Source: Candidatus Baldrarchaeota archaeon (lineage in GTDB: Archaea; Asgardarchaeota; Baldrarchaeia; Baldrarchaeales; DXJG01). Taken from it: a DNA stretch of 32,000 nucleotides. Location of the stretch: NCBI GenBank assembly GCA_019056805.1, contig DXJG01000009.1, forward strand, positions 299,473 to 331,472, written 5' to 3'. Position 1 is the first letter of the stretch, and the number at the start of each line of letters is the position of its first letter. Of the stretch, positions 1,924-17,217 are shown one piece after another. The notes below the pieces were generated by a model. The model was not told where the DNA came from and ran no database searches. It saw nothing but the letters and a program-made list of their open reading frames with translations. Both the position numbers and the translations under genes were made by a program.

Positions 1924-3483
1924 ATGGTGAGTTGTTTGAAGGTTATTTTAGTTGGGGTGGATGGCGCTACATCTTGGATTATCGAAGAGTTACTTTTCGG
2001 GCTTAGCGGTTTTAATAGGTTAGCAAAAGATGGAATTCTTTGTAATTTGAAAACTACTTTACCGCCTTTGAGTAGTTGTGCTTGGGCTAGTATTTATACA
2101 GGTGTTAAGCCTAGTAGGCATGGTATGTTTGATTTTGTTGGTGTTGAGCACGATTATAACGTTAGAGGCTTAGGCTTTGTTAACGGTTTAAAATTTCCTG
2201 TTTTTTGGAGTTTGCTTGGAAAATTCGGGTTTAAAAGTGTTGTTGTGAATCCTCCAATGGTCTATCCAGCCTTTAAAGTTAATGGTGTTTTGGTTTCAGG
2301 TTGGCCTTCTCCTAGAGTATCTGTTTATCCTGATAGGTTTAGAAGAGTTTTGAAAGAAGTTGGATATAAGATTGATGTTGATGGTTTAGAAGGTCGTTTT
2401 AGGAAAGATCCAGATGCTACTGTTGACGATTTAGTTGAAACTGCTAAAACTCGTGGTGAGGCATGTTTAAGACTTGCTGAGGAGGTTGGAGACTGGAACT
2501 TGTTGTTTCCTGTTTTTACCGTTTGTGATCGGATTCAGCATTTTGCCTTGGGGCGTAAAGAATGGAAAAAATGGGTTTTAAAGGCTTATAGAGTTGTTGA
2601 TGAATTTATTCAGCAAGCTTTGAATTTGTTAAAGGAAGAAGAAGGTCTGTTATTCGTTGTTTCTGATCATGGTTTTCAACCAATTAGAAAATCTTTTCTT
2701 ATAAATTCTTGGCTTGTAAAAACGGGTTTCGCTAAATTGAGATATAGTCGTTTTCGTTCTTTAATTAGAGAATACATTGTTAATAATATTAATTTGAGAA
2801 CTATTTATTGGGGAGCTTCCAACCGAAGACTCGCTACCCTAGTTGGAAAGATTGGTAGTTTGTTTTTGGGCGGGGCTCCTTTACATGGAAGGTTTAGTGT
2901 AAATGATTTCATTTTAAGGAAGACTTTAGCTTTTGCCTCTGGTACTATTAGTCCTACTACTTTCATTTGGATTAATGATGAAAGGTTTAAACAATTTGCT
3001 GTTGAAAAATCGAAGAAATCTGATATAAGAGAAAAAATTGTGGACGGTCTTTTTAAAGTTAAGGATCAGAGTGGTATAGCGATAGTTAGAGATGTTGTGG
3101 AGGTTGAAAATCTTTATACTGGTAATGGTAAAGGAGATATGGTTTCTCCTGATTTAATGGTTGTTGCTAACGACGGATATACTATTGATCCTTGGTATGT
3201 TAGTTCAGGCTATGTGGTTAATCCTAGTGTTTATAGACATGGAGACCATAGTTTTGAAGGAGTTTTTGCCGCCTTAGGGCCATCTCTTAACGATATGAAA
3301 AACTTTAACACTTGCGGCGTCGTTGATATAGCTCCCACGATTTTAAGTCTCTTTAAGATCCCTATTCCCTCTTGGATGAGCGGAGAACCCCTAACTAGAA
3401 TTAACTCGCATTCTGAAGCAAATTTAAAGAATAGATTAAAGCTTAAAGCAAAAATTGTCGAGAAAAAACTTTATGGCTGCTAA
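1924..3483 (+). CDS. Alkaline phosphatase superfamily protein (NPP/type I phosphodiesterase-like), paralog 1, Ser at nucleophile position
   Basis: GVDGA metal Asp, TLPPLSSCAW...TG..P..HG nucleophile region, DRIQH, VVSDHGF, HGDH, DIAPTIL. No signal peptide. Confidence 0.88.
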   Translation: MVSCLKVILVGVDGATSWIIEELLFGLSGFNRLAKDGILCNLKTTLPPLSSCAWASIYTGVKPSRHGMFDFVGVEHDYNVRGLGFVNGLKFPVFWSLLGKFGFKSVVVNPPMVYPAFKVNGVLVSGWPSPRVSVYPDRFRRVLKEVGYKIDVDGLEGRFRKDPDATVDDLVETAKTRGEACLRLAEEVGDWNLLFPVFTVCDRIQHFALGRKEWKKWVLKAYRVVDEFIQQALNLLKEEEGLLFVVSDHGFQPIRKSFLINSWLVKTGFAKLRYSRFRSLIREYIVNNINLRTIYWGASNRRLATLVGKIGSLFLGGAPLHGRFSVNDFILRKTLAFASGTISPTTFIWINDERFKQFAVEKSKKSDIREKIVDGLFKVKDQSGIAIVRDVVEVENLYTGNGKGDMVSPDLMVVANDGYTIDPWYVSSGYVVNPSVYRHGDHSFEGVFAALGPSLNDMKNFNTCGVVDIAPTILSLFKIPIPSWMSGEPLTRINSHSEANLKNRLKLKAKIVEKKLYGC

Positions 3484-3493
3484 CCGAGAAACT

Positions 3494-3507
3494 TATAATC
3501 CATTATA
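3494..3507. promoter_or_regulatory. Inverted repeat TATAAT-cc-ATTATA upstream of RHH gene 1 (possible operator/TATA region)
   Basis: 6-bp inverted repeat with 2-bp spacer in the 68-bp intergenic gap; AT-rich, so could be chance. Confidence 0.3.
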
Positions 3508-3551
3508 CCTCACAATATTTCATGTAAATTTAGGAATTCAGGTTTGGGAGG

Positions 3552-3779
3552 TTGATTGTTTTGTCAGAAGATAAGGTCGCTGTTTATATCTCTAAAGATC
3601 TATATGAGGAAATTAAGAAACGTGTTGACTCAAGCGGTGGAGAATTCAAAAGCGTCGAAGAATACGTGGAATTTGTTTTGAGCGAGATCGTAAAGGAGGA
3701 AGAAGAGGAAGAATTTGAATATAGCCCCGAAGAAGAAGAAAAAATAAAGGAAAGGTTACGAGGACTAGGATACCTTTAA
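3552..3779 (+). CDS. CopG/ribbon-helix-helix protein with acidic RLRGLGYL tail (RHH-1)
   Basis: VAVYISKDLYEEIKKRV...FKSVEEYVEFVLSEIV is an RHH pattern; tail EEEEKIKERLRGLGYL. GGGAGG RBS at 3546-3551 suggests the true start is TTG 3561. Confidence 0.8.
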   Translation: MIVLSEDKVAVYISKDLYEEIKKRVDSSGGEFKSVEEYVEFVLSEIVKEEEEEEFEYSPEEEEKIKERLRGLGYL

Positions 3780-3803
3780 CATAATAATCAAAATGAACGT
3801 ACA

Positions 3804-4325
3804 CTACACATATTTTAATTCTGTTAATTTTTCCAAAATTTTTTGAACACATTGCTCTGGTGTATCATTTTCCGTATCAACTATTACCTCTGGATTTTCA
3901 GGTTCCTCATATGGATCCGATATTCCTGTGAAGTTTTTTATTTCTCCTTGTATGGCTTTTTTGTAAAGGCCTTTTGGATCCCTTTGGATACATGTTTCCA
4001 CAGAACATTTCACGTAAACTTCAATGAACTTTTCTATTATGCTTCTAGCATAGTCTCTCATTGCCCTATATGGTGAAACTAAACTTACAATAACTGCTAC
4101 TCCGTGTTTAGCTAGCATTTTAGCTAAATATGCTACTCTTCTTCCATGTTTTAATCTGTCTTCCTTTGAAAAACCTAAGTCTTGACTTAAACCTTTTCTT
4201 AGCTCATCTCCATCAAGTACTTCAGTATCCCAACCAAGTTCTCTTAATTTTTCCTCAAGTTTTCTTGCAATAGTTGTTTTACCCGATGCTGGCAATCCCG
4301 TTAACCAAACAACAAATCCCCTCAT
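3804..4325 (-). CDS. cysC: Adenylyl-sulfate (APS) kinase
   Basis: WLTGLPASGKTT P-loop, LDGD, LGFSKEDR, SLVSPY, RDPKGLYKKA, FTGISDPYEEP. ATG 4325 directly follows the stop of the upstream gene (ORF track starts at GTG 4334). Confidence 0.96.
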   Translation of the reverse strand: MRGFVVWLTGLPASGKTTIARKLEEKLRELGWDTEVLDGDELRKGLSQDLGFSKEDRLKHGRRVAYLAKMLAKHGVAVIVSLVSPYRAMRDYARSIIEKFIEVYVKCSVETCIQRDPKGLYKKAIQGEIKNFTGISDPYEEPENPEVIVDTENDTPEQCVQKILEKLTELKYV

Positions 4326-4326
4326 T

Positions 4327-5712
4327 CTATACACCCTCTACTACCTTTCCCTCCATATCTCCTGGTGGTTCTATCTCTAAAAGTCTTAGAATTGTAGGAG
4401 CTACGTCAAGTATATCTATATCTATTTTCTTCCCACCAAAATTTTGGTTTGGATCATAAATTATGTGTATTCCGTATTGACTATGTACAGCATCATCTGG
4501 TCCAGTGTCATTCTCCGGTAAATAAACTGTATTGTGTCCTATTGTTCCTGCCGACCTCCAATATAAGTCGTCAAAGAAAACCATGAGATCCGGCGGTTCA
4601 CCATTTATTTCTGGGTAATATTCCTCAGGTTTTATTACCTTTGTTTCTAGTTTTTCACCACTAGGTCCACGTATATTCTCTATTTTTTCTGCTAGTTCAT
4701 CTCTTACATCTTCGTACTCCTCAGGTTTTATTATTCCTTGTGGCTCTCTACCTTCTACATTTAGGAAGATTCTTGCGTAATAGCCTCCCCATCCCCATGC
4801 TATGGTTTTTTTCCAATCTACTTCTGCTTTCTCCAGCCGTATTTTTTGTTCAGGGTATTTCTTTAGGGTTAGGTAGCCTTCTTTTATTAGCCACTCATTT
4901 ATACATAGTGCCCCTTTCATTCTCTTTGCTCCATGATCGGAAACAACAACAATCTTCGTGTTTTTTGGAATTATTTTTAGAAGCTCTTCAATTTGCTGAT
5001 CTAGGCATTTATAGTAGTTCAAGATTGCATCGCTATATTTGCTATGTGGTTCGTATAAATGGTGTTCTGGGTCAAAGAATTTCCAAAAGGCATGTTGAAC
5101 ACGATCCAACCCTATTTCTACAAACATGAAAAAGTCCCATTTCTTATTTTTAAGCAAGTACTTTATTAATTTGAAGCGTTTTTCTGTCATCTCGTATAGT
5201 CCTTTTAATAATTTGTCTCTTTCCTCTGTTCTAAACGGTATGTCAAAAATATAGTTTCCTACTACTTTTTCGATTTCTTCTTTAAGTTCTGGAGGATATG
5301 TGTATTGTTTCGCATTCGTAGGGGTAATGAAGCAGGATATAAGGTAACCGTTGAGAGGCTTCGGTGGATAGGTTGGTGGTACTCCAATAACTATGGATCT
5401 TTTACCCTTTTCGCTAAGTATGTTCCATACGGTTTTTTCTTTGATTTTTTGGTAGTTAGCTATCCATATATCCGTGTATGAATAGTTTTTGCGATGTCTA
5501 AACCCATATATCCCTAGTTTTCCAGGGTTTTTGCTTGTTGACATTACCATCCAAGCTGGAATCGTAATCGGTGGAACACAACTTTTCATTTTTCCATATA
5601 TTCCATTCTCTACAAGGCTTTTGATGTTTGGTAGTTCATCTAGAAACGCATCAAAAAGTAGTTCAGGTGGCGCTGCGTCTAAACCAATAACTAAAACTTT
5701 TGGTTCACTCAT
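4327..5712 (-). CDS. Alkaline phosphatase superfamily protein (NPP-like), paralog 2, Thr at nucleophile position
   Basis: IGLDAA, SCVPPITIPAW, DRVQH, VVSDHG, DAVHSQYG, DVAPTIL. No signal peptide. Lies between sat and cysC in one operon. Confidence 0.9.
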   Translation of the reverse strand: MSEPKVLVIGLDAAPPELLFDAFLDELPNIKSLVENGIYGKMKSCVPPITIPAWMVMSTSKNPGKLGIYGFRHRKNYSYTDIWIANYQKIKEKTVWNILSEKGKRSIVIGVPPTYPPKPLNGYLISCFITPTNAKQYTYPPELKEEIEKVVGNYIFDIPFRTEERDKLLKGLYEMTEKRFKLIKYLLKNKKWDFFMFVEIGLDRVQHAFWKFFDPEHHLYEPHSKYSDAILNYYKCLDQQIEELLKIIPKNTKIVVVSDHGAKRMKGALCINEWLIKEGYLTLKKYPEQKIRLEKAEVDWKKTIAWGWGGYYARIFLNVEGREPQGIIKPEEYEDVRDELAEKIENIRGPSGEKLETKVIKPEEYYPEINGEPPDLMVFFDDLYWRSAGTIGHNTVYLPENDTGPDDAVHSQYGIHIIYDPNQNFGGKKIDIDILDVAPTILRLLEIEPPGDMEGKVVEGV

Positions 5713-5727
5713 TACATTCGCCTTCTG

Positions 5728-6888
5728 TTACTCAACAAATGGATTTTTCCATTTTAAAATTATTTCTGATATTTCTGGCCTCATTATTTCTTTTGGTGGT
5801 TTTTTGCCTTGTTGTAAGAGCTTTCTTATCACCGTCCCGCTAAATCTTACACGGTATTCTTCTGGGTGTGGACATGTTTTTTCATTCGCCATACCGCCAC
5901 ATTTTTTACATATGAAGAATTCTTTGAAAAATATGGGAATTATTCCTAAGTCTGGGAATTCATCAAATATTTCTTGGGCAGCATATGGTGGGTAAAAGTT
6001 TCCCACTCCTGCATGATCTCTTCCTACTATGAAATGAGTGCATCCAAAGTTTTTCCTTACAATAGCATGAAATATTGCTTCTCTAGGCCCTGCATACCTC
6101 ATTTCTGTTCGTAGTATTGCTAAAACTGCTCTATCTTTAAGATAATAATGTTTTATTAGTTCTTCGTAAGCTGCTAGAATTACCTCATCTTTGAAATCTC
6201 CCTTCTTTTTTCTCCCTATTACCGGATTTATGAATAGTCCATCCGTGAATGTTAGGGCAGTTTTTTGTACATATTCGTGTCCTGTATGTGGAGCATTTCT
6301 TGTTTGGAACCCTACTATTGTTCTCCATCCTCTTTCCTTGAAAAGTAGTCTCGTTTCCACAGGCCATAATGTATATTTATAGTATGGATTTGCTGAATGG
6401 TCTATTAGGTCTATTTTTCCTCCTAGAAGTTTTTCTTTCATTCCATATGTTTTTGCTACTCCTGGATGCGCTGGGTCTTTTATCCCAAACACTTTTTCTA
6501 CATGTTTTTCTTTATCGTAATCATATACTTCCTCCACATGTAGTATGGCTATGAGCTTTTCTTCTTCAAGGCAAATTATTGTTATGTTATCGCCCTCTTT
6601 TACTGTTTTTATCTCTTCTTCGTCAACATCTATCACTATGGGTATTGTCCAAGGAAGATCGTTAGATAGTCTCATATTTTCCAATACATTCAAGTAATCT
6701 TCTTGTATCATTGGGCCCTCTAGTGGACTGAAGACGCCATGAGCAATGTTTTCTATATCTTTGATGTATTCGCTTGGTAATTTTATTTTTGGTAGTTCTA
6801 GTGCTTCTTTCAATCTTCTATCTCTTTCCTTGCCTTTTAACACTCTATTTATGAGTCTCCCTCCGTGTGGCGGTGGCATTTTCGTCAT
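5728..6888 (-). CDS. sat: Sulfate adenylyltransferase (ATP sulfurylase)
   Basis: PHGGRL, FSPLEG, FQTRNAPHTGHEY, MRYAGPREA.FHAIVRKNFGCTHFIVGRDHAGVG, and CKKC...CPH Zn site of the thermophilic type. Confidence 0.97.
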   Translation of the reverse strand: MTKMPPPHGGRLINRVLKGKERDRRLKEALELPKIKLPSEYIKDIENIAHGVFSPLEGPMIQEDYLNVLENMRLSNDLPWTIPIVIDVDEEEIKTVKEGDNITIICLEEEKLIAILHVEEVYDYDKEKHVEKVFGIKDPAHPGVAKTYGMKEKLLGGKIDLIDHSANPYYKYTLWPVETRLLFKERGWRTIVGFQTRNAPHTGHEYVQKTALTFTDGLFINPVIGRKKKGDFKDEVILAAYEELIKHYYLKDRAVLAILRTEMRYAGPREAIFHAIVRKNFGCTHFIVGRDHAGVGNFYPPYAAQEIFDEFPDLGIIPIFFKEFFICKKCGGMANEKTCPHPEEYRVRFSGTVIRKLLQQGKKPPKEIMRPEISEIILKWKNPFVE

Positions 6889-6895
6889 ACTCCTT

Positions 6896-7138
6896 TTAAT
6901 CTATGTAACCAAGAGCTCTTAGTCTTTCTTTTATTTCTTCCTCCTCTTCCTCCGAAAATACTTCTTTCTCTTCTTCCAGTTTTGCAAGGTATTCTCTTAT
7001 TATGTGGGTTACCAAGCTTGAAACCGAAGAAAACTCTGTTTCCTTGACTTTTTCTTCAAGTTTTTTATATAGAGATGTTGGTATTAGAATTGAGGTGAAA
7101 TTTTTGCTTTTTGTTTTTTCTTCGGTCAATTTCATCAT
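6896..7138 (-). CDS. CopG/ribbon-helix-helix protein with acidic RLRALGYID tail (RHH-2)
   Basis: FTSILIPTSLYKKLEEKV...FSSVSSLVTHIIREYL is an RHH pattern; tail EEEEEEIKERLRALGYID; 7 bp upstream of sat. Confidence 0.82.
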   Translation of the reverse strand: MMKLTEEKTKSKNFTSILIPTSLYKKLEEKVKETEFSSVSSLVTHIIREYLAKLEEEKEVFSEEEEEEIKERLRALGYID

Positions 7139-7145
7139 CCTTTAT

Positions 7146-7220
7146 TTTTGTAGTGGATTTACAAAACGACCATATAAACCTCACGGTTATATACATGAAA
7201 ATTCACGTATATATACGTGA
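7146..7220. promoter_or_regulatory. Three tandem inverted repeats, including a perfect 18-bp palindrome TCACGTATATATACGTGA (7203-7220)
   Basis: TTTTGTA/TACAAAA (7146-7152/7160-7166), ATATAAACC/GGTTATAT (7172-7180/7185-7192, one-base mismatch in length) and the perfect palindrome, all within the 86-bp gap upstream of RHH-2-sat. Minus-strand TTTATATG TATA-like box near 7172-7179. Confidence 0.6.
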
Positions 7221-7224
7221 TGGA

Positions 7225-8598
7225 TTAAGAAGTAAAAATCTGTTGAATAGGTTTCCCATCCATATAATTTGGTATTGGAACTTGTAATATCTTTAATATT
7301 GTTGGCGTCAAGTCGTAAAGATTAGCTTCAACTTCTAAGCCTTCAGGAATACCGTGTCCTAGTATAGCTAATATTCCTGGTACGTCTCTTGGATCATGTG
7401 TTCCATCATGTCCTCCATTCCACTTTTCAGACTTTACAATACATTTTTGAGTTTTATATTCCTTTGATTTGCCTCTACTTGCCTGCCAACCTGAATTAAA
7501 AAGTATTATTAGATCTGGGGCCTCCTCTACATAAGGCCCCCAATATACGTCTCGTGTAGCCACATACTTCACTACTTTTTGCCCATCTACCTCTATCTTC
7601 TCTAAATTTTTCTTAATTTTTTGCAGAATCTCTCCGTATTCTTCAGGTTTTATTTTCCCTTGCGGTTCTCTCCCCTTCAAATTTAACCATACATCTCCAT
7701 ACTCATACGCAACCGCCACACTACCTTCAACATCTATTTCTCCCTTAACATCTCCCTTTAGGAAACCTTGTTTATGTAGTAAGCAATTAACTAATACCTC
7801 ACTATGCACCGGACAGAAACCGTGATCAGAAAGCAAAATAAACAAAGTTTCCTCAAGATCTATATTCTCCAGAAACCTAGAAATAATTACATCCATTTTT
7901 TGATAATATCTCTTAACTTTCTCTGTAAACTCATTCTTCTCATATTCTGGATGTCTTTCATCCACATATTTCCAGAAAAAGTGCTGTATACGATCTGTAC
8001 CCATAAACACCGTTATAAAAAAATCCCATTCTTCTTCCTCAAGTAAAAATAAGCTTATATCCATTTGTATATCAGTTATTTCATCTACTCTTTCAAAAAA
8101 CTTGTCCGGTTCCTCCTTAACCCTTTCGAGTAGCTTTATTTCCACATCACCTTTAAACTGTTTAATTCCGAATTTGCCTTGTAATTTTTCTTTTATTTTG
8201 GTTGGATACGGTATCCCTTCATTTTTTGCTAGAAATCCTGGTATTATGAATCCGTTTAACTCTTCTGTTCTTGCCATGGGGACATTTATTACACCCACTT
8301 TTTTGTCATGTTCACTTAATATTTTCCATAGAGTTTTTGTTTTTATTTTATCAGGAGTATTCACTTTTCTTTTGTATGTCCCCTTTTCTCTTGTCATAAA
8401 GCTGAATATTCCATGCTTCCCCGGGTTTACTCCCGTCATAAAAGTTGTCCATGCCACCGGAGTTTGTGCTGGTAACGGCGGTATCGTTCTACCCATTATC
8501 CCCTGCTTTTTTATTTTTCTTAGAGCTGGCAGCGTCTCTATCCATTTTTCTACCAATATAGGTGACAAACCATCTGAGCCAATTACTAAGACCCTCAT
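7225..8598 (-). CDS. Alkaline phosphatase superfamily protein (NPP-like), paralog 3, Thr at nucleophile position
   Basis: IGSDGL, PAQTPVAW..FMTG.NPGKHG, DRIQH, LSDHGF, GGHDG, DLTPTIL. GGGAG RBS; no signal peptide. Confidence 0.9.
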   Translation of the reverse strand: MRVLVIGSDGLSPILVEKWIETLPALRKIKKQGIMGRTIPPLPAQTPVAWTTFMTGVNPGKHGIFSFMTREKGTYKRKVNTPDKIKTKTLWKILSEHDKKVGVINVPMARTEELNGFIIPGFLAKNEGIPYPTKIKEKLQGKFGIKQFKGDVEIKLLERVKEEPDKFFERVDEITDIQMDISLFLLEEEEWDFFITVFMGTDRIQHFFWKYVDERHPEYEKNEFTEKVKRYYQKMDVIISRFLENIDLEETLFILLSDHGFCPVHSEVLVNCLLHKQGFLKGDVKGEIDVEGSVAVAYEYGDVWLNLKGREPQGKIKPEEYGEILQKIKKNLEKIEVDGQKVVKYVATRDVYWGPYVEEAPDLIILFNSGWQASRGKSKEYKTQKCIVKSEKWNGGHDGTHDPRDVPGILAILGHGIPEGLEVEANLYDLTPTILKILQVPIPNYMDGKPIQQIFTS

Positions 8599-8658: not shown

Positions 8659-9666
8659 TCAAACTGCAGCTTTCTGTATCTTTTTAAGTCCTCTCATGGC
8701 TACTATGTATGCTGATGTTGTATGAACGTCTAGTCCCAAATCTCCCGCTATTATCTTAGCACTTATTGATGAGTATGCTGGATTAACCTTTATTAACTCT
8801 CCTTCAACCTTGGGGACTAAAACCTCCATCTGTTGTGTAAACTCCCTTAAAGCCATCTTTGAAATCTTCCTCTTAGCAGTCTTATTACCTTTAGGTTTTG
8901 GTTTAGACAATCTTTCAATAACATAGTATTTTACGCCGTGCTCTCTAGCATACTTCACAAGCTTAGTAAGGGATTCTCTCCTTAAAGAAACCGCCTTCTC
9001 CCTTGGAAATCCATGAGATGTAATCTCCATAAAATGCTCGTTTCTAACGTCTCTCATAATTCCCTGTCTATCAATTATCACCATATTTATCCTATCTGGG
9101 TTAAAGTCAAAGCCGGCAATATGTTCAGTAATCTTCGTCTTTGATTCTTTCCTCATATATTTAACGTAGAGTTCTAGTGGAATATTTATGTAGAGGATTA
9201 ATTTACTGTCTTTTGTACATATACCCGCTCCATAAGATATGTTGGAATTCGTCAATTCTTGAATTATCGGTATGTGTTTCCTTCCAAACTTTACTTTAGC
9301 TTTTAACCATCTATGTTTCCCAGTAGCTGAAGGTATTTTAATTAGCACGATTTCAGTCGACATTAACCTTATGTTTCTATTACCTTTCTCAGCTTTAACA
9401 CCAACCGAATATAATTGTGGTTTCTTAAGTTTGAGATACGGTTGCTCACTATACAGTTTTGCCCTTATGTATGCTGAACGCGAGTACCATTTATTGTTAA
9501 GTATTCTTGACGTTAACAGCTTGATTATTTTGTTTTCTTTTAATCCTTTCTTCAACAGTGAATGAGCATAGTCAACAGCATCTTTAAAGTTCCTCATAAC
9601 GTATAGTAAAAAGGCTTTATCCTCTGCTGAGCTGAGAACGAGCTTTCCCTTAATTGTAGGTCTCAC
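8659..9666 (-). CDS. tnpB: IS200/IS605 accessory TnpB-related RuvC protein lacking the C-terminal Zn ribbon
   Basis: GNRNIRL motif; RuvC-I GFDFNPD, RuvC-II VIERL, VNPAYSS, RuvC-III LDVH; no CxxC pairs. GTG 9666 overlaps the AbrB stop (GTGA); ORF track uses GTG 9678. Confidence 0.8.
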   Translation of the reverse strand: MRPTIKGKLVLSSAEDKAFLLYVMRNFKDAVDYAHSLLKKGLKENKIIKLLTSRILNNKWYSRSAYIRAKLYSEQPYLKLKKPQLYSVGVKAEKGNRNIRLMSTEIVLIKIPSATGKHRWLKAKVKFGRKHIPIIQELTNSNISYGAGICTKDSKLILYINIPLELYVKYMRKESKTKITEHIAGFDFNPDRINMVIIDRQGIMRDVRNEHFMEITSHGFPREKAVSLRRESLTKLVKYAREHGVKYYVIERLSKPKPKGNKTAKRKISKMALREFTQQMEVLVPKVEGELIKVNPAYSSISAKIIAGDLGLDVHTTSAYIVAMRGLKKIQKAAV

Positions 9667-9821
9667 TTCTTTTCCCACTTCTCGACCACCATCCTACCAT
9701 TCTTCTCATCATAGTAAACTACGAGCTTATCCTTTGGTTTAAGATCCCACTTCTCGGCAATCTCCTTAGGTATGGTCATCTTCATTTTGGGTAAAACCCT
9801 ATATACCCCTATTAACTCCAT
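9663..9821 (-). CDS. AbrB/MazE/SpoVT-family DNA-binding protein, 52 aa (missed by ORF track)
   Basis: MELIGVYRVLPKMKMTIPKEIAEKWDLKPKDKLVVYYDEKNGRMVVEKWEKK matches the xTIPKEIxxxxxLKPxDxL AbrB pattern. GGTGAT RBS; stop overlaps the tnpB start. Confidence 0.82.
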   Translation of the reverse strand: MELIGVYRVLPKMKMTIPKEIAEKWDLKPKDKLVVYYDEKNGRMVVEKWEKK

Positions 9822-10030: not shown

Positions 10031-10088
10031 GTGGTTGAACGGCATTAGCTTTTTATTGATTGTTGAGAATTTATTGTGGGGAATTGTT

Positions 10089-10274
10089 ATGAGTAAGGTA
10101 AAATATGTAAATATTTCTATCCCTAAGCCTTTATATGAACGTTTAGAAAAAGCTTTAAAGGACTCTGGCTATAGGAGTCCGACTGAATATATCATTTTCC
10201 TTATCAGGAAACATCTCGCTGACCTTGAGTCTGATGATCTCGATCGTAGATTAAAGGCCCTCGGCTACAAATAA
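10089..10274 (+). CDS. CopG/ribbon-helix-helix protein with RLKALGYK tail (RHH-3)
   Basis: MSKVKYVNISIPKPLYERLEKAL...YRSPTEYIIFLIRKHL is an RHH pattern; tail DDLDRRLKALGYK. ATG 10089 preferred over TTG 10035. Confidence 0.82.
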   Translation: MSKVKYVNISIPKPLYERLEKALKDSGYRSPTEYIIFLIRKHLADLESDDLDRRLKALGYK

Positions 10275-14040: not shown

Positions 14041-17000
14041 TTGAAAGAGGAAACAGAGGTAGCGGTTATAAGTACATCGCCCTCAACGAAATGCGGTATA
14101 GGAATTTACACAGAGAACCTTTACAGCGCACTACCCAAAGAGAAAAGAGACAAAATAGTTATACTATCCAATGATTTTTACCAAGGAAATGTAAAATATG
14201 AAAGAGTCTGGAAAAAGGGTCTAGATTTTCTTTCACCATTTAAAATTCTTCATAGAATATTTAAGAAAAACTGTAGAGTTGTGCATCTTCAACACGAATG
14301 GTTAATTTTCGGTTCACTACCTGCAAATCTTATCTATGCCTTCATGCTATATTTTCTTAAACTTCTTGGTAAAAAAACTCTTGTGACTTTCCATACAATA
14401 TTTGATCTTAATCGTTTAACAGAAGATACGTTAAAGACTTTTAACATAGCGTATCCACTAAAGCTTGTTAAAACCGTTATAAAAATTCTAACAAAACTTT
14501 ATGCAGAAGCAAGCACCGCCATAATAGTACATAATGAACACATGAAAAAAACTTTAGTAAAGCTGTACAAAGTTTCACCCAATAAAGTTGTAGTAATTCC
14601 ACACTTCGTTAAGAAATTACCTAAAGTAAGGCGGGACGAGGCAAAGAAAAAGCTAGGCCTTCAAGGTAAAACGATTACTCTTCTTTTTGGATTAATAAGA
14701 AAGGGAAAAGGTTATGAATATGTTATAAAAGCTTTTCAAAAGGTCAAAGAAAAAAATCCAAATAGCATTCTTCTAATAGTCGGGGCAGTACAAACGGGAG
14801 AATTATATTGGGGAGAACAGTATTTAAAGAAATTAAAACAACTTGTTAAAAAACTTGAATTAGAAAATTATGTAAGATTTTTAACGAGATATGTTCCAGA
14901 TGAAGAAGTTCCCATCTTTCTCAGCGCTGCAGACTTATTAGTACTGCCATATGAAAAAGGGAAATCCTACTATTCAGCTAGTGGAATATTGCATCTTGCG
15001 ATGAATTTTGGAACTCCTGTAATTGCAGCAAAAACCTTACAATTTTCCGAAATAATTGATGAAGAAAATGGAAAACTAGTGGAACCAGAAAATATCGAAA
15101 ATCTTGCAAATACGATAATAGAATTGTTGGAAGACAGGAAAAGACGGTTAAGGTATTCGGAAAATCTTAGAAAACTTGCAAAAGAAAGGACAGTCGAAAA
15201 ATGTGCAGAGAAACACTGGAAACTTTACCAAAAACTAATCAAATATGAAAAGATAGAATACGAGAGCAAAATTGCTCAAATTTTACCTCATATACTGGTT
15301 TTATTACCTATTCTACTTATGATATTAAACCTTGATATAATAAATACTGGAAATGATACTTTTACGCATTTATATAAGGCGTGGATACTTAGACAACAAA
15401 TAAAAACTATGCCCATATGGCTTTGGGGCCAATGGGACTGGACATGGTATCTTGGCAATCCGTTTTTAAGAAGCTATTCACCCCTCTTCTACTATGTCCT
15501 TGCAACCCTAAGTTTAGTAGCACCATTCTGGTTAACAGCAAAAATCTTGTTAAGCGTAATAACACCCTTAGCCTATATATCCACCTATAAAGCTCTGAAA
15601 TACTTTACTAAAAATAAAATAGTTTCAATAGTTTTTGCTACAGTCTATATATATTCACCAGCTCACATAGTACCTTTTTATCTTTGGGGATCTGTAGGTC
15701 AAGCTCTAACAACCATAATAATACCACAATATCTTATACAACTTCACAAAGCCGTTCAAACAAACAAAAACAGAAATGCGCTTACAACCGCGTTAATGCT
15801 AGCTTCAATAATACTCTTAAATATGGCTGTTGGTTTTTGGATGACACTTTTAACATCAATATGGATTCTCTCAAAGAAACAATTGATGAACCTCTTGAAA
15901 ATCGGTGTATGTTCAGCGTCTCTCACCGCATCTTTTCTCTATGCCTATCTGACTGCAGAAGGCATCATGTTACCAGTGCTCACCCCCTTATCTCAAGTTG
16001 AACATTTAGTGGAATGGCTAAGAAATTCTTATGGAATATCAATTTTACAAGTTGAATTAACTATTATAGCCTATATAGCAGTAGTATTTACATATCTTAA
16101 GTTTAGAGGAAGGGAAATAGAGAAAGTTGAGAAGCCGCACTGGGAGAAATCTTTTGAAATCATGGTGGCAGTAATTGTGATAACTTTAGTTTTTTCTACT
16201 CTTCAAATATATCCCTTCTCAATAATAGGAGGAGATAGAGTTCTCACGACCTCCGGTTTTGTAGTAGTTTTCATAGGAGCATACTATATTTCGAAGATAA
16301 AGAATCTTCGTGTTCTCAAAATTTTTGCCGTAATGCTTATAGTCATAACGTTGCTCACAGGAATTCTTTATCAACCATATAATCCTGTACATCCTGGAAC
16401 CTATAATGAGTTATATCAAACGATAAAAGAGGATCCTGAATGGTTTAGAGTACTTTTCTTACCACGAGAGCCATGGGGAGCACTTACCCCACTATATACT
16501 AACCATCCTACACTAAATGGCTGGTACCCTCAATGCCTCCCACCAGAAGTATTTAACACCCTTGGAAGCTTGATAACCTACGATAAATACGCCTACCTAG
16601 AGAGAAACCTAACAGTGGAACCGGAAAACACTATAAATCTTATACGTTACTTGGGAGTGAAATATATCATAGTTGACGGAAAAGACCCAGTATTTCCCGA
16701 GTTAACTCAAAAAATACTCAAATCAATGCTCAGAACCGCGAATAGAACAAACCAAGTAACTTTACTAGAAAATTACACACATAGATATCTTTTCAGAATA
16801 GAAAACTTTACACCAGTCCACGCTCTAACCTACGTGCCCAAGAATAGAGAACAAATCCCGTGGAACACAGAAAAAATCAACAAAATACAAGTAATTCAGA
16901 AAACAGATATATTAGAAATTCGCATTCAATTACCCCAAGATTACTGGATAGTCATACCAATAACATACGACAAAAACTTAAAAATAACGTTGGACAATCG

Positions 17001-17217
17001 ATCAGTACAAGTGGAAACCGCCTACCCTCAAATAATTGCGATAAAAACACCAAAAGGGGATCATATCATACGAATACAAATAACTACAACAACGAATAGT
17101 AAGCTAACATTGATTATAACATTTACATCATGGATGATAACAGTAGCTTATATGATTATTCAACAATTATTTAATGTAACAAAAAGGAAAAAGCATTTAA
17201 ATTTCAACGAAAACTAG
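14041..17217 (+). CDS. Fusion of a GT4 (mannosyltransferase-like) domain and a GT-C-like membrane domain (PTPS-related/YfhO type)
   Basis: aa 1-400: STSPSTKCGIGIYT, FGLIRKGKG, SASGILHLAM.FGTPVI. From about aa 410: GNDTFTHLYKAW...WYLGNP..RSYSPLFY, many TM helices, and a YfhO-like C-terminal beta region (VIPITYDKNL...TPKGDHIIRI) plus a final TM. Confidence 0.8.
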   Translation: MKEETEVAVISTSPSTKCGIGIYTENLYSALPKEKRDKIVILSNDFYQGNVKYERVWKKGLDFLSPFKILHRIFKKNCRVVHLQHEWLIFGSLPANLIYAFMLYFLKLLGKKTLVTFHTIFDLNRLTEDTLKTFNIAYPLKLVKTVIKILTKLYAEASTAIIVHNEHMKKTLVKLYKVSPNKVVVIPHFVKKLPKVRRDEAKKKLGLQGKTITLLFGLIRKGKGYEYVIKAFQKVKEKNPNSILLIVGAVQTGELYWGEQYLKKLKQLVKKLELENYVRFLTRYVPDEEVPIFLSAADLLVLPYEKGKSYYSASGILHLAMNFGTPVIAAKTLQFSEIIDEENGKLVEPENIENLANTIIELLEDRKRRLRYSENLRKLAKERTVEKCAEKHWKLYQKLIKYEKIEYESKIAQILPHILVLLPILLMILNLDIINTGNDTFTHLYKAWILRQQIKTMPIWLWGQWDWTWYLGNPFLRSYSPLFYYVLATLSLVAPFWLTAKILLSVITPLAYISTYKALKYFTKNKIVSIVFATVYIYSPAHIVPFYLWGSVGQALTTIIIPQYLIQLHKAVQTNKNRNALTTALMLASIILLNMAVGFWMTLLTSIWILSKKQLMNLLKIGVCSASLTASFLYAYLTAEGIMLPVLTPLSQVEHLVEWLRNSYGISILQVELTIIAYIAVVFTYLKFRGREIEKVEKPHWEKSFEIMVAVIVITLVFSTLQIYPFSIIGGDRVLTTSGFVVVFIGAYYISKIKNLRVLKIFAVMLIVITLLTGILYQPYNPVHPGTYNELYQTIKEDPEWFRVLFLPREPWGALTPLYTNHPTLNGWYPQCLPPEVFNTLGSLITYDKYAYLERNLTVEPENTINLIRYLGVKYIIVDGKDPVFPELTQKILKSMLRTANRTNQVTLLENYTHRYLFRIENFTPVHALTYVPKNREQIPWNTEKINKIQVIQKTDILEIRIQLPQDYWIVIPITYDKNLKITLDNRSVQVETAYPQIIAIKTPKGDHIIRIQITTTTNSKLTLIITFTSWMITVAYMIIQQLFNVTKRKKHLNFNEN

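Follow-up and report, generated by a model that had tools for sequence, protein, structure and literature searches.

The 32,000-nt stretch of DNA analysed here (the window, from contig DXJG01000009.1 of a Candidatus Baldrarchaeota archaeon, hereafter the host) carries a four-gene operon encoding a CopG-like ribbon-helix-helix (RHH) protein (RHH-2), the ATP sulfurylase Sat, an enzyme of the alkaline phosphatase (AlkP) superfamily (AlkP-2) and the adenosine 5'-phosphosulfate (APS) kinase CysC. Our favoured reading, which we hold with about as much confidence as doubt, is that AlkP-2 would consume the 3'-phosphoadenosine 5'-phosphosulfate (PAPS) made by this pathway and thus act as a non-canonical sulfotransferase. 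Gene linkage, gene fusion and the replacement of AlkP-2 by a canonical sulfotransferase in the same slot of a sister cassette lead us to favour a tie of AlkP-2 to PAPS rather than to the Sat step, and since Sat, CysC and the PAP phosphatase have their own steps, the conversion of PAPS to 3'-phosphoadenosine 5'-phosphate (PAP) would fall to AlkP-2 as the one remaining cassette member. The core of this cassette is already published for Thermococcales, its AlkP member as a pyrophosphatase (PPase). New here are the mutually exclusive occupation of the slot by AlkP-2 or a mini-sulfotransferase, the bias of linkage and fusion towards APS kinase, a locus-specific C-terminal tail on the RHH proteins and CysC (degenerate on some long AlkP paralogs) and the docking of this tail on the catalytic Thr of AlkP-2 that co-folding predicts with a high score.

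In the mechanism that we envisage, RHH-2, Sat, AlkP-2 and CysC would be co-transcribed, Sat would make APS and CysC would convert it to PAPS, which would serve sulfation, most plausibly of surface glycans from the adjoining glycan-biosynthesis island. AlkP-2 would use PAPS and release PAP, with sulfuryl transfer taking place at a bimetal site of the nucleotide pyrophosphatase/phosphodiesterase (NPP) type and at Thr50, and the hydrolysis of inorganic pyrophosphate (PPi) by the Thermococcus ortholog would be a side or second activity of the enzyme. Repression of the operon probably falls to the RHH protein, acting at palindromes that precede its gene, and structure prediction places the conserved C-terminal tail of this protein in the catalytic cleft of AlkP-2.

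The slot replacement was found in a sample of 151 genomes of another archaeal phylum, which we queried with PAP phosphatase (PAPP) and which yielded 30 cassettes, 25 without AlkP-2 and 5 with it. The resulting sister cassette is ordered RHH-sat-PAPP-X-cysC, where slot X, between PAPP and cysC, is the position that AlkP-2 takes elsewhere. Eight of the 25 cassettes lacking AlkP-2 have in this slot a tightly coupled open reading frame (ORF) of 186-187 aa (L108, L111, L113, L116-L118, L125 and L127), and three more place a 186-187-aa protein after cysC, so that 11/25 carry a homolog. The slot-X protein passes Pfam thresholds as a canonical sulfotransferase (Sulfotransfer_1, 39.6 bits versus 22; Sulfotransfer_3, 37 bits versus 27) and is among the smallest P-loop sulfotransferases known to us. 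Homologs of it were detected neither in the five AlkP-2 cassettes of this phylum sample, nor in 80 AlkP-2 loci from a wider scan (see below) searched with 10-kb flanks, nor in the host genome. Both cassettes have in common the RHH protein with its identical tail, Sat, a DHH protein of the Methanothermococcus thermolithotrophicus PAP phosphatase (MtPAPP) type, a tailed CysC, gene order and tight coupling, whereas the sister cassette has the mini-sulfotransferase instead of AlkP-2 in the PAPP-cysC slot and the two never co-occur. Such either/or occupation, with a canonical sulfotransferase in some cassettes, AlkP-2 in others and the two never together, is a signature of non-orthologous displacement. 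As evidence we use this exclusivity at the level of the slot only: the complementarity of AlkP-2 and canonical sulfotransferases at the level of whole genomes (14/50 versus 21/21, Fisher p = 4e-9) was dropped because phylogeny confounds it, large sulfotransferases being encoded also in four of the phylum sample's AlkP-2 genomes. Examples of the mini-sulfotransferase, which has the loop SGxxRSGTS, are encoded at L108:2460-3023 (+) and L127:2424-2984 (+), with homologs in L100, L103 and L104.

The AlkP-2 cassette itself is widespread. A scan in which an alignment of AlkP-2 homologs was run against prokaryotic genomes, one for each species, gave 580 confirmed loci, the best 80 of which were kept; of the 580 confirmed species genomes, archaeal and bacterial, at least 80 have the arrangement RHH-sat-AlkP2-cysC. 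The archaeal hosts of the 80 loci are Asgard lineages, Bathyarchaeia, Hydrothermarchaeota, Methanomethylicota, Archaeoglobi and Nitrososphaerota, the bacterial ones Aminicenantes, other uncultured bacteria and Desulfotomaculum copahuensis; the nearest relatives of the window's AlkP-2, labelled Odinarchaeota and Baldrarchaeota, are 91-92% identical to it. Counting neighbours only at loci with enough flank (75 downstream and 59 upstream), we found cysC no more than 1.5 kb downstream of AlkP-2 in 61/75 (81%), an RHH gene upstream in 50/59 and sat upstream in 39/59 (66%). At 11 loci cysC is kept without sat, and at four sat is kept without cysC; among the 50 AlkP-2 genomes profiled, all contain an APS kinase and 48 contain Sat. 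Moreover, AlkP-2 and APS kinase are fused in a single ORF in Desulfotomaculum copahuensis (L074:9992-12325 (+), 777 aa) and in a Nitrosopumilaceae metagenome-assembled genome (L059:5260-7200 (+), 646 aa). Archaeoglobaceae retain RHH-(DHH)-AlkP2-cysC with sat at another site of the genome, and some Aminicenantes-like genomes have RHH-AlkP2 beside TviC/TviB-like UDP-sugar genes (RHH-AlkP2-SDR-UGDH) with sat-cysC elsewhere.

Between sat and AlkP-2, 18/80 loci carry a DHH gene whose product is clearly homologous to a characterised PAP phosphatase, that of M. thermolithotrophicus (8A8K, 5e-40). AlkP-2 is therefore unlikely to be a PAP phosphatase itself, since an enzyme of the MtPAPP type is already present next to it in these 18 cassettes. 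The alternative in the earlier note on this DNA, made from sequence alone, that the AlkPs recycle PAP or PAPS is likewise weakened for PAP by the many cassettes that use the DHH enzyme. A TauE/DUF81 permease adjoins the cassette in 12/80 loci, among them that of the close relative L009. Bacterial cassettes have a TviC-like epimerase with TviB/TuaD-like dehydrogenases as neighbours, archaeal ones RmlB/GalE-like enzymes, sugar nucleotidyltransferases, flippases, family-2 glycosyltransferase (GT2) genes and extra long AlkP paralogs. A sulfite route would be implied if the short-chain dehydrogenase/reductase (SDR) neighbours were UDP-sulfoquinovose synthases; we considered this and rejected it, as they score as TviC-, RmlB- or GalE-like and reach ~48 bits with the synthase model versus a cut-off of 575.

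Three variants were seen beside these patterns. A 915-aa protein (L071:8615-11362 (+)) has an uncharacterised N-terminal region of 460 aa preceding AlkP-2. In five Bathyarchaeota loci (L044, L061, L064, L072 and L087), sat-AlkP2 is followed not by cysC but by two tandem PhoU+TrkA_C proteins of ~200 aa, and the APS kinase of these genomes is located elsewhere. The 1.5-Mb Nitrosothermus-like genome of locus L050 (G028) matches APS kinase strongly at seven separate places, several of which lie at the ends of contigs; a repeated element carrying cysC or an assembly artefact may be the cause.

The content of the host genome (assembly of 1.92 Mb in 18 contigs, 91% complete) bears on what the PAPS is for. 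No NIR_SIR sulfite reductase was found in this 91% complete genome, and because of this the gene content supports sulfation rather than assimilation as the probable destination of the locus's PAPS, an expectation of the earlier note that is borne out in a host that also lacks a canonical sulfotransferase. Such an enzyme linked elsewhere in the genome had been named there as grounds for abandoning the idea; profile searches of the host genome found no Sulfotransfer_1 or Sulfotransfer_3 protein, the sole match (19.7 bits, with four internal stops) being spurious. PF03567 and PF17784 also gave no match in the host, which is uninformative as control genomes gave none either. The same searches of the host genome detected no PF00884 sulfatase, CysQ/IMPase or MtPAPP-type PAP phosphatase, and tblastn gave no match to TauE; the host's two DHH proteins are of the RecJ/GAN type, with 5X4H, 5GHR and 7BHI as best PDB matches and not 8A8K. 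Across the 50 AlkP-2 genomes profiled, PF13469/PF00685 sulfotransferases are missing from 36, and from 29 sulfite reductase is missing as well; NIR_SIR is present in 10/50 of these genomes versus 0/21 sister-cassette genomes. Soluble family-I PPase (PF00719) was not detected in the host, which has two tandem genes for membrane H+/Na+-pyrophosphatases (G000:C15:64282-68710, ORFs of 705 and 732 aa), a combination that suggests PPi-based energy conservation.

The fold and active site of AlkP-2 place it in a known class of phosphoesterases. All three AlkP paralogs of the window exceed the PF01663 gathering score of 23 bits, and their alignment confirms what had been described from the sequence at these positions, namely sat and cysC interleaved with three NPP-like enzymes that keep the complete two-metal ligand set (D; DxxxH; DH; H). 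The G-x-D motif reads GLD, GSD and GVD, the nucleophile position is Thr (PPITIPAW), Thr (PAQTPVAW) or Ser (PPLSSCAW), and DR(V/I)QH, SDHG and an aligned distal His are kept in all three. The C/S-x-P-x-R motif of formylglycine (FGly) sulfatases is absent from the three, and the PF00884 sulfatase profile, matched by AlkP-2 alone, stays below its cut-off (16.9 bits versus 25). A manganese arylsulfatase was considered as a precedent for sulfate chemistry without FGly and rejected, as that enzyme does use FGly. Each of the three sequences begins directly at the first beta-strand, and inspection, without a predictor being run, showed no signal peptide or transmembrane segment.

In profile alignment, Thr50 of AlkP-2 falls on the catalytic Thr of the Xanthomonas NPP, the residue that is Ala in the mutant entry 7MW8. 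Foldseek with the AF2 model of AlkP-2 (pLDDT 92) returned ENPP1/3/6/7 and the Xanthomonas NPP as top matches (E to 6e-18, TM 0.55-0.6). AlkP-2 thus has the fold, Thr nucleophile, metal ligands and PF01663 membership in common with the NPPs (Xanthomonas NPP 2GSN; ENPP1/3/6/7), but identity is just 12-16%, the protein is apparently cytoplasmic and encoded inside a PAPS operon, and its family has invariant motifs of its own (GFRHR, WGWGGY, WRSAGT and ENDTGPDD) and an insertion of ~100 aa. No sequence-level PDB relative of the family was found, and a literature search with COG3379 and related terms returned no functional study of it.

The three small RHH proteins of the window belong to the same system and had been missing from the gene list of the earlier note. 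Each has an acidic run followed by a C-terminus of the form ...(K/R)(E/R)RL(R/K)xLGY(L/I/K), a tail that the family alignment places on 54/55 RHH members from bacteria and archaea. RHH-2 matches RHH profiles weakly (RHH_5, 19.8 bits versus 26; RHH_1, 16.8 versus 20.5), and the cassette RHH gene is annotated 'putative copG' in Pyrococcus yayanosii (PMC8268124). Among the 6612 ORFs of the host genome the tail motif occurs in three, all within the locus. The C-terminus of the window's CysC (...KILEKLTELKYV) resembles the RHH tail, and a related ...KLxELGY(L/I)(D/E) closes the sequence of most cassette CysC proteins. The full tail is present on one long AlkP paralog (L027) and a degenerate basic amphipathic version on others, AlkP-1 included, and our comparison of cassette proteins never found the tail on AlkP-2, Sat, DHH, TauE or the sugar enzymes.

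Co-folding of AlkP-2 with RHH-2 gave an ipSAE of 0.87, 0.86 and 0.87 in three runs versus 0.02 for the best control, with a partner pLDDT of at least 71 and contact agreement between runs of at least 96%; in calibration, the same mark was attained by 51/78 solved complexes and 2/108 mismatched pairs. Residues 57-80 of RHH-2 occupy the catalytic cleft of AlkP-2 in the model, and Tyr78 contacts Ile49, Thr50 and Ile51 as well as the GFR and WGGY motifs. Invariance across the family is seen at 22 of the 33 positions in the interface versus 86/428 elsewhere (odds ratio 8, p = 4e-8), an enrichment to be read with the caveat that active-site residues are expected to be invariant anyway. A solved complex resembling this one was not found. 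The predicted docking fits either a tail that serves as acceptor or an enzyme-repressor pair resembling a toxin-antitoxin system. AlkP-2 as the reason for the conservation of the RHH tail was rejected: the 21 sister-cassette genomes keep an identical tail, 10 of them without a PF01663-like gene at 1e-20, and since these 21 genomes lack AlkP-2 it is not the sole tail partner; the mini-sulfotransferase, Sat and CysC are candidate alternatives.

Upstream of RHH-2, ~40-80 nt from its start, lie the palindrome TCACGTATATATACGTGA and an imperfect copy of it, together spanning a TATATA box. The window contains these two matches versus 0.04 expected by chance and no others, and an operator overlapping the promoter is a plausible reading of them. 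The exact degenerate pattern is absent from 93 other loci, the 80 AlkP-2 loci included, so that an operator role is unsupported by conservation.

Several points weigh against AlkP-2 as a PAPS consumer. A Thr-nucleophile bimetal NPP natively attacks phosphorus, a Thr-O-sulfate intermediate would be hard to turn over, and we know of no efficient sulfuryl transfer by a site of this type. In the sister cassettes the slot is empty in 14 of the 25 without AlkP-2, and the RHH tail is fully kept in the 21 genomes without any AlkP-2 ortholog; conversely, canonical sulfotransferases stand alongside AlkP-2 in 14/50 genomes and in 4/4 of those tested from the phylum sample. The 57-68% identity of AlkP-2 between archaea and bacteria would fit a universal small substrate such as PPi, and the host lacks a soluble family-I PPase, so that a dedicated soluble PPase would be useful to it. 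Finally, the one enzyme activity known to us to have been measured in the family is the hydrolysis of PPi by TON_1705 of Thermococcus onnurineus, with a Km of 18.8 uM, a kcat of 2.1 s-1, a kcat/Km of 1.1e5 and a pH optimum of 9.5 (PMC9653972 Table 1; cited in PMC4463584 and PMC8268124). An alternative that we regard as possible but rather unlikely makes AlkP-2 an inorganic pyrophosphatase of NPP fold, which by removing PPi would pull the unfavourable ATP-sulfurylase reaction, and leaves sulfotransfer to other proteins or to divergent AlkP paralogs; the RHH tail may then gate the PPase, sparing the PPi pool of an organism reliant on membrane PPases. Compared at full length, AlkP-2 and the P. 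yayanosii protein encoded between the DHH and APS kinase genes share 57% identity and have the same gene order around them; AlkP-2 is an ortholog of PYCH_17550 and of the assayed TON_1705. PPi removal limits assays of ATP sulfurylase and APS kinase (PMC10322725), ATP sulfurylase-PPase fusions exist in stramenopiles and haptophytes (PMC2275785), and the two H+-PPases of a host without PF00719, the chemistry native to NPPs and the family's high conservation count on the same side. Against a PPase, AlkP-2 is linked and fused to cysC in preference to sat, it is kept in operons without a PPi-producing enzyme (the Archaeoglobaceae and the Aminicenantes-like RHH-AlkP2-SDR-UGDH arrangement), and the slot elsewhere holds a sulfotransferase and not a PPase. 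Hydrolysis of PPi may also reflect promiscuity, AlkP-superfamily enzymes being promiscuous, and a 460-aa enzyme with what is modelled as a conserved, peptide-sized groove would exceed the need of PPi hydrolysis. The family-I PPase of T. onnurineus is far faster, with a kcat ~10^4-fold above that of TON_1705 (PMC9653972). The earlier note's suggestion that the AlkPs act as sulfate transferases therefore survives in part: the cysC fusions and the slot replacement speak for it in the case of AlkP-2, whereas the cassette proves to be published and the assayed ortholog of AlkP-2 to be a PPi hydrolase.

An improbable alternative makes the tails the substrates. AlkP-2, or the mini-sulfotransferase in the sister cassette, would O-sulfate the tail Tyr of the RHH repressor and of CysC, so that AlkP-2 would be a new NPP-fold class of PAPS-dependent sulfotransferase with the Tyr of ...RLxxLGY as acceptor, taking the place of a minimal P-loop sulfotransferase in the operon and forming a PAPS-sensing switch by protein tyrosine O-sulfation in archaea and bacteria that reports PAPS supply to operon transcription and to APS kinase; in a variant, AlkP-2 would merely bind the tail as a pseudo-substrate, in an enzyme/repressor pair of the toxin-antitoxin kind. 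The co-fold, which sets Tyr78 on Thr50, would agree with this, as would the near-universal tail on RHH proteins, its presence on most cassette CysC proteins and its restriction to the locus in the host, and the tail is retained with either AlkP-2 or the mini-sulfotransferase in the slot. We also count for it the acidic run before the tail Tyr, which we take to recall the context of tyrosine-sulfation sites. Yet the CysC tails vary at the aromatic position (Y, F, C, H or L), cassettes without AlkP-2 and without mini-sulfotransferase still have the tail, a cassette that produces only its own regulation would have no output, and the co-fold score is a prediction and no measurement. Far less probable still is assimilatory sulfate reduction with the AlkPs as accessory phosphoesterases. 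The cluster is called 'assimilatory' in published annotations (PMC8268124, PMC4463584), and a 643-aa protein with PUA, PAPS_reduct and Fer4 domains is encoded on another host contig; however, the absence of NIR_SIR from the host and from the sister-cassette genomes, with its presence in only a fifth of the AlkP-2 genomes profiled, stands against this, the PUA fusion is RNA-related in appearance and unlinked, and the locus lies inside glycan-biosynthesis genes. As for the three AlkPs being generic cytoplasmic phosphodiesterases that stand beside sat and cysC by chance, PF01663 is a broad family with seven genes in the host, but we give this hardly any credence: the conserved RHH-sat-AlkP2-cysC order across many phyla refutes it for AlkP-2, and the translational overlap and the two cysC fusions add to the case against it.

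The PUA protein just mentioned (a PUA + PAPS_reduct + 4Fe-4S dicluster protein at G000:C6:75153-77083, L089:850-2781, -) is unlinked to the cassette and probably an RNA-modifying enzyme of the ATP-pyrophosphatase type rather than a PAPS reductase. Two of the host's PF01663 paralogs (476 and 473 aa) lie in a second glycan cluster, G000:C8:2763-18843 (L097), in which a Wzx-type flippase, four family-4 glycosyltransferases (GT4), a methyltransferase and three ORFs without a Pfam match are encoded on the same strand.

The two flanking paralogs differ from AlkP-2 in their distribution. Pairwise identity among the three is 23-31% (23-24% for AlkP-1 with the others, 31% for AlkP-3 with AlkP-2). AlkP-1, which has Ser at the nucleophile position and a basic amphipathic C-terminal tail ending ...KKLYGC, is 26-28% identical to long paralogs adjoining the cassette in L015, L020, L037 and P. 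yayanosii, and belongs with them to a loose group of 515-555 aa whose members recur beside the cassette, near flippase and glycosyltransferase genes, in Jordarchaeia-like, Nitrososphaerota, bacterial and P. yayanosii loci. Orthologs of AlkP-3 (54-78% identity) occur in 4/50 cassette genomes, two beside the cassette and two elsewhere. Judged from sequence, AlkP-1 and AlkP-3 are lineage-specific extra paralogs and not part of the cassette core. They could serve acceptor-specific transfer, or PAP clearance in a genome without CysQ and an MtPAPP-type enzyme; by analogy, their divergence and glycan-cluster context would be as expected for acceptor-specific modifying enzymes. The three paralogs had been treated alike in the earlier note, a view that gives way to a conserved core (AlkP-2), a narrow clade (AlkP-3) and a divergent long paralog (AlkP-1), and the co-occurrence with sat and cysC on which the proposal had been staked is strong for AlkP-2, across the species genomes counted above, and does not extend to the other two.

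Genes of the window were mapped by ORF listing and profile searches (Table 1). The RHH-2-sat-AlkP-2-cysC operon occupies 3804-7138 on the minus strand, where the first three genes stand 7 and 15 nt apart and the start of cysC overlaps the end of AlkP-2 by 8 nt. The plus-strand genes AlkP-1 and RHH-1 converge on cysC, AlkP-3 lies upstream of the operon and also on the minus strand, and each flanking PF01663 paralog is paired with a small RHH gene nearby. In the related locus L009, the RHH-3 ortholog directly adjoins AlkP-3 in divergent orientation, so that the TnpB/AbrB element of the window looks like an insertion that split this pair. The best PDB match of Sat is the M. thermolithotrophicus ATP sulfurylase 8A8D (7e-150). 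Profile searches confirmed the glycosylation genes at 12.5-32 kb (GT2/GT4 genes, UDP-GlcNAc 2-epimerase and UDP-ManNAc dehydrogenase) and, again as first described, gave no match among window proteins to sulfotransferase domains (canonical P-loop profiles PF00685/PF13469), APS/PAPS-reductase domains or sulfite-reductase domains.

Table 1. Features of the sulfate-activation locus and adjoining genes (positions in the window)
Feature	Position	Strand	Description
AlkP-1	1924-3483	+	519 aa; PF01663 7.6e-30, 105 bits
RHH-1	3552-3779	+	75-aa ribbon-helix-helix-like mini-protein; acidic linker; tail end ...KERLRGLGYL
cysC (APS kinase)	3804-4334	-	176 aa; PF01583 5.5e-63; TIGR00455 2.8e-69
AlkP-2	4327-5712	-	461 aa; NPP-fold, predicted Thr50 nucleophile; PF01663 5.1e-50, 171 bits
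sat (homo-oligomeric ATP sulfurylase)	5728-6888	-	386 aa; PF01747 2e-92 + PUA_2
RHH-2	6896-7138	-	80-aa CopG-like protein; first operon gene; acidic linker; tail end ...EEEIKERLRALGYID
Tandem palindromes, candidate operator	7181-7220	.	two 18-bp copies, TCACG-N8-CGTGA type, over TATATA box
AlkP-3	7225-8598	-	457 aa; PF01663 1.1e-45, 157 bits; Thr nucleophile; without C-terminal tail
TnpB-like gene (339 aa) + overlapping 52-aa AbrB-like ORF	8659-9821	-	between AlkP-3 and RHH-3
RHH-3	10035-10274	+	79-aa RHH-like mini-protein; tail end ...LDRRLKALGYK
GT4 glycosyltransferase joined to PTPS-related/YfhO-like multi-pass membrane domain	14041-17217	+	single 1058-aa ORF

Hundreds of anaerobic archaea and bacteria (among them Asgard lineages, Bathyarchaeia, Thermococcales, Archaeoglobi and Aminicenantes) possess sat and cysC without a reductase and often without a recognisable sulfotransferase, and metabolic reconstructions label such organisms 'incomplete sulfate assimilation'. 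Should AlkP-2 be the PAPS consumer, this gap would be closed, PAPS-dependent sulfotransfer would have a second fold, and the gene would flag sulfated envelopes in lineages not yet cultured, among which are the archaeal relatives of eukaryotes. Should it be only a PPase, the question becomes which protein uses the PAPS, and the divergent AlkP paralogs in glycan clusters become suspects. Either way, the exclusive slot, the AlkP2-CysC fusions and the common tail make this annotation problem directly testable, and tractable Thermococcales hosts exist.

The closest known system is the Thermococcales cluster. In P. yayanosii, PYCH_17520-17570 encode copG, ATP sulfurylase, a DHH pApase, a 'type I phosphodiesterase/nucleotide pyrophosphatase' and APS kinase with an adjacent TauE, and the same cluster is listed for Ferroglobus, Aciduliprofundum, Aeropyrum and Ignicoccus (Jin et al. 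2021, PMC8268124). In T. onnurineus, TON_1704-1707 are given as APS kinase, pyrophosphatase, PAP phosphatase and ATP sulfurylase (PMC4463584, which cites Lee et al. 2009, J Bacteriol 191:3415). In our data the P. yayanosii locus (L092) reads RHH-ATPS-DHH-PF01663-APSK-TauE (ATPS, ATP sulfurylase; APSK, APS kinase), followed by a flippase, a 545-aa long AlkP paralog, GT2 and DegT. The window is like these clusters in the set, order and co-directionality of RHH, sat, PF01663 and cysC genes, but it lacks the DHH PAP phosphatase and TauE and has two extra AlkP paralogs and two extra tailed RHH proteins. The published Thermococcales work treats the PF01663 member as a PPase, and sulfotransfer, the tail motif and slot replacement are not considered there.

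For sulfate transfer by the superfamily, the nearest parallel is Halobacterium salinarum, in which the AlkP-superfamily proteins Agl30 (VNG1056C) and Agl31 (VNG1057C) have been shown genetically to be N-glycan sulfotransferases (Zaretsky et al. 2025, PMC11980604). They resemble the AlkPs of the window in superfamily and in their place in a glycosylation cluster, in an archaeon without an obvious canonical enzyme for the sulfation step; they differ in being sulfatase-like (the PF00884/arylsulfatase branch, nearest 5G2U and 6HHM) and not NPP, one of them being membrane-bound. The assimilatory locus of M. thermolithotrophicus, with ATP sulfurylase, APS kinase, DHH PAP phosphatase and an APSR-like PAPS reductase (Jespersen et al. 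2023, PMC10322725), is the source of the closest solved Sat (8A8D) and of the solved counterpart of the cassette DHH (8A8K), and follows the same logic of making PAPS, using it and clearing PAP. Its PAPS consumer, however, is a reductase feeding Fsr, whereas the window has an AlkP-fold enzyme in that place and neither a reductase nor a sulfite reductase. Lastly, the fusions of ATP sulfurylase with family-I PPase in stramenopiles and haptophytes (Patron et al. 2008, PMC2275785) are a precedent for a PPase dedicated to sulfate activation and support the PPase alternative; in them the PPase is joined to ATP sulfurylase, whereas the NPP-fold AlkP-2, when fused, is joined to APS kinase.

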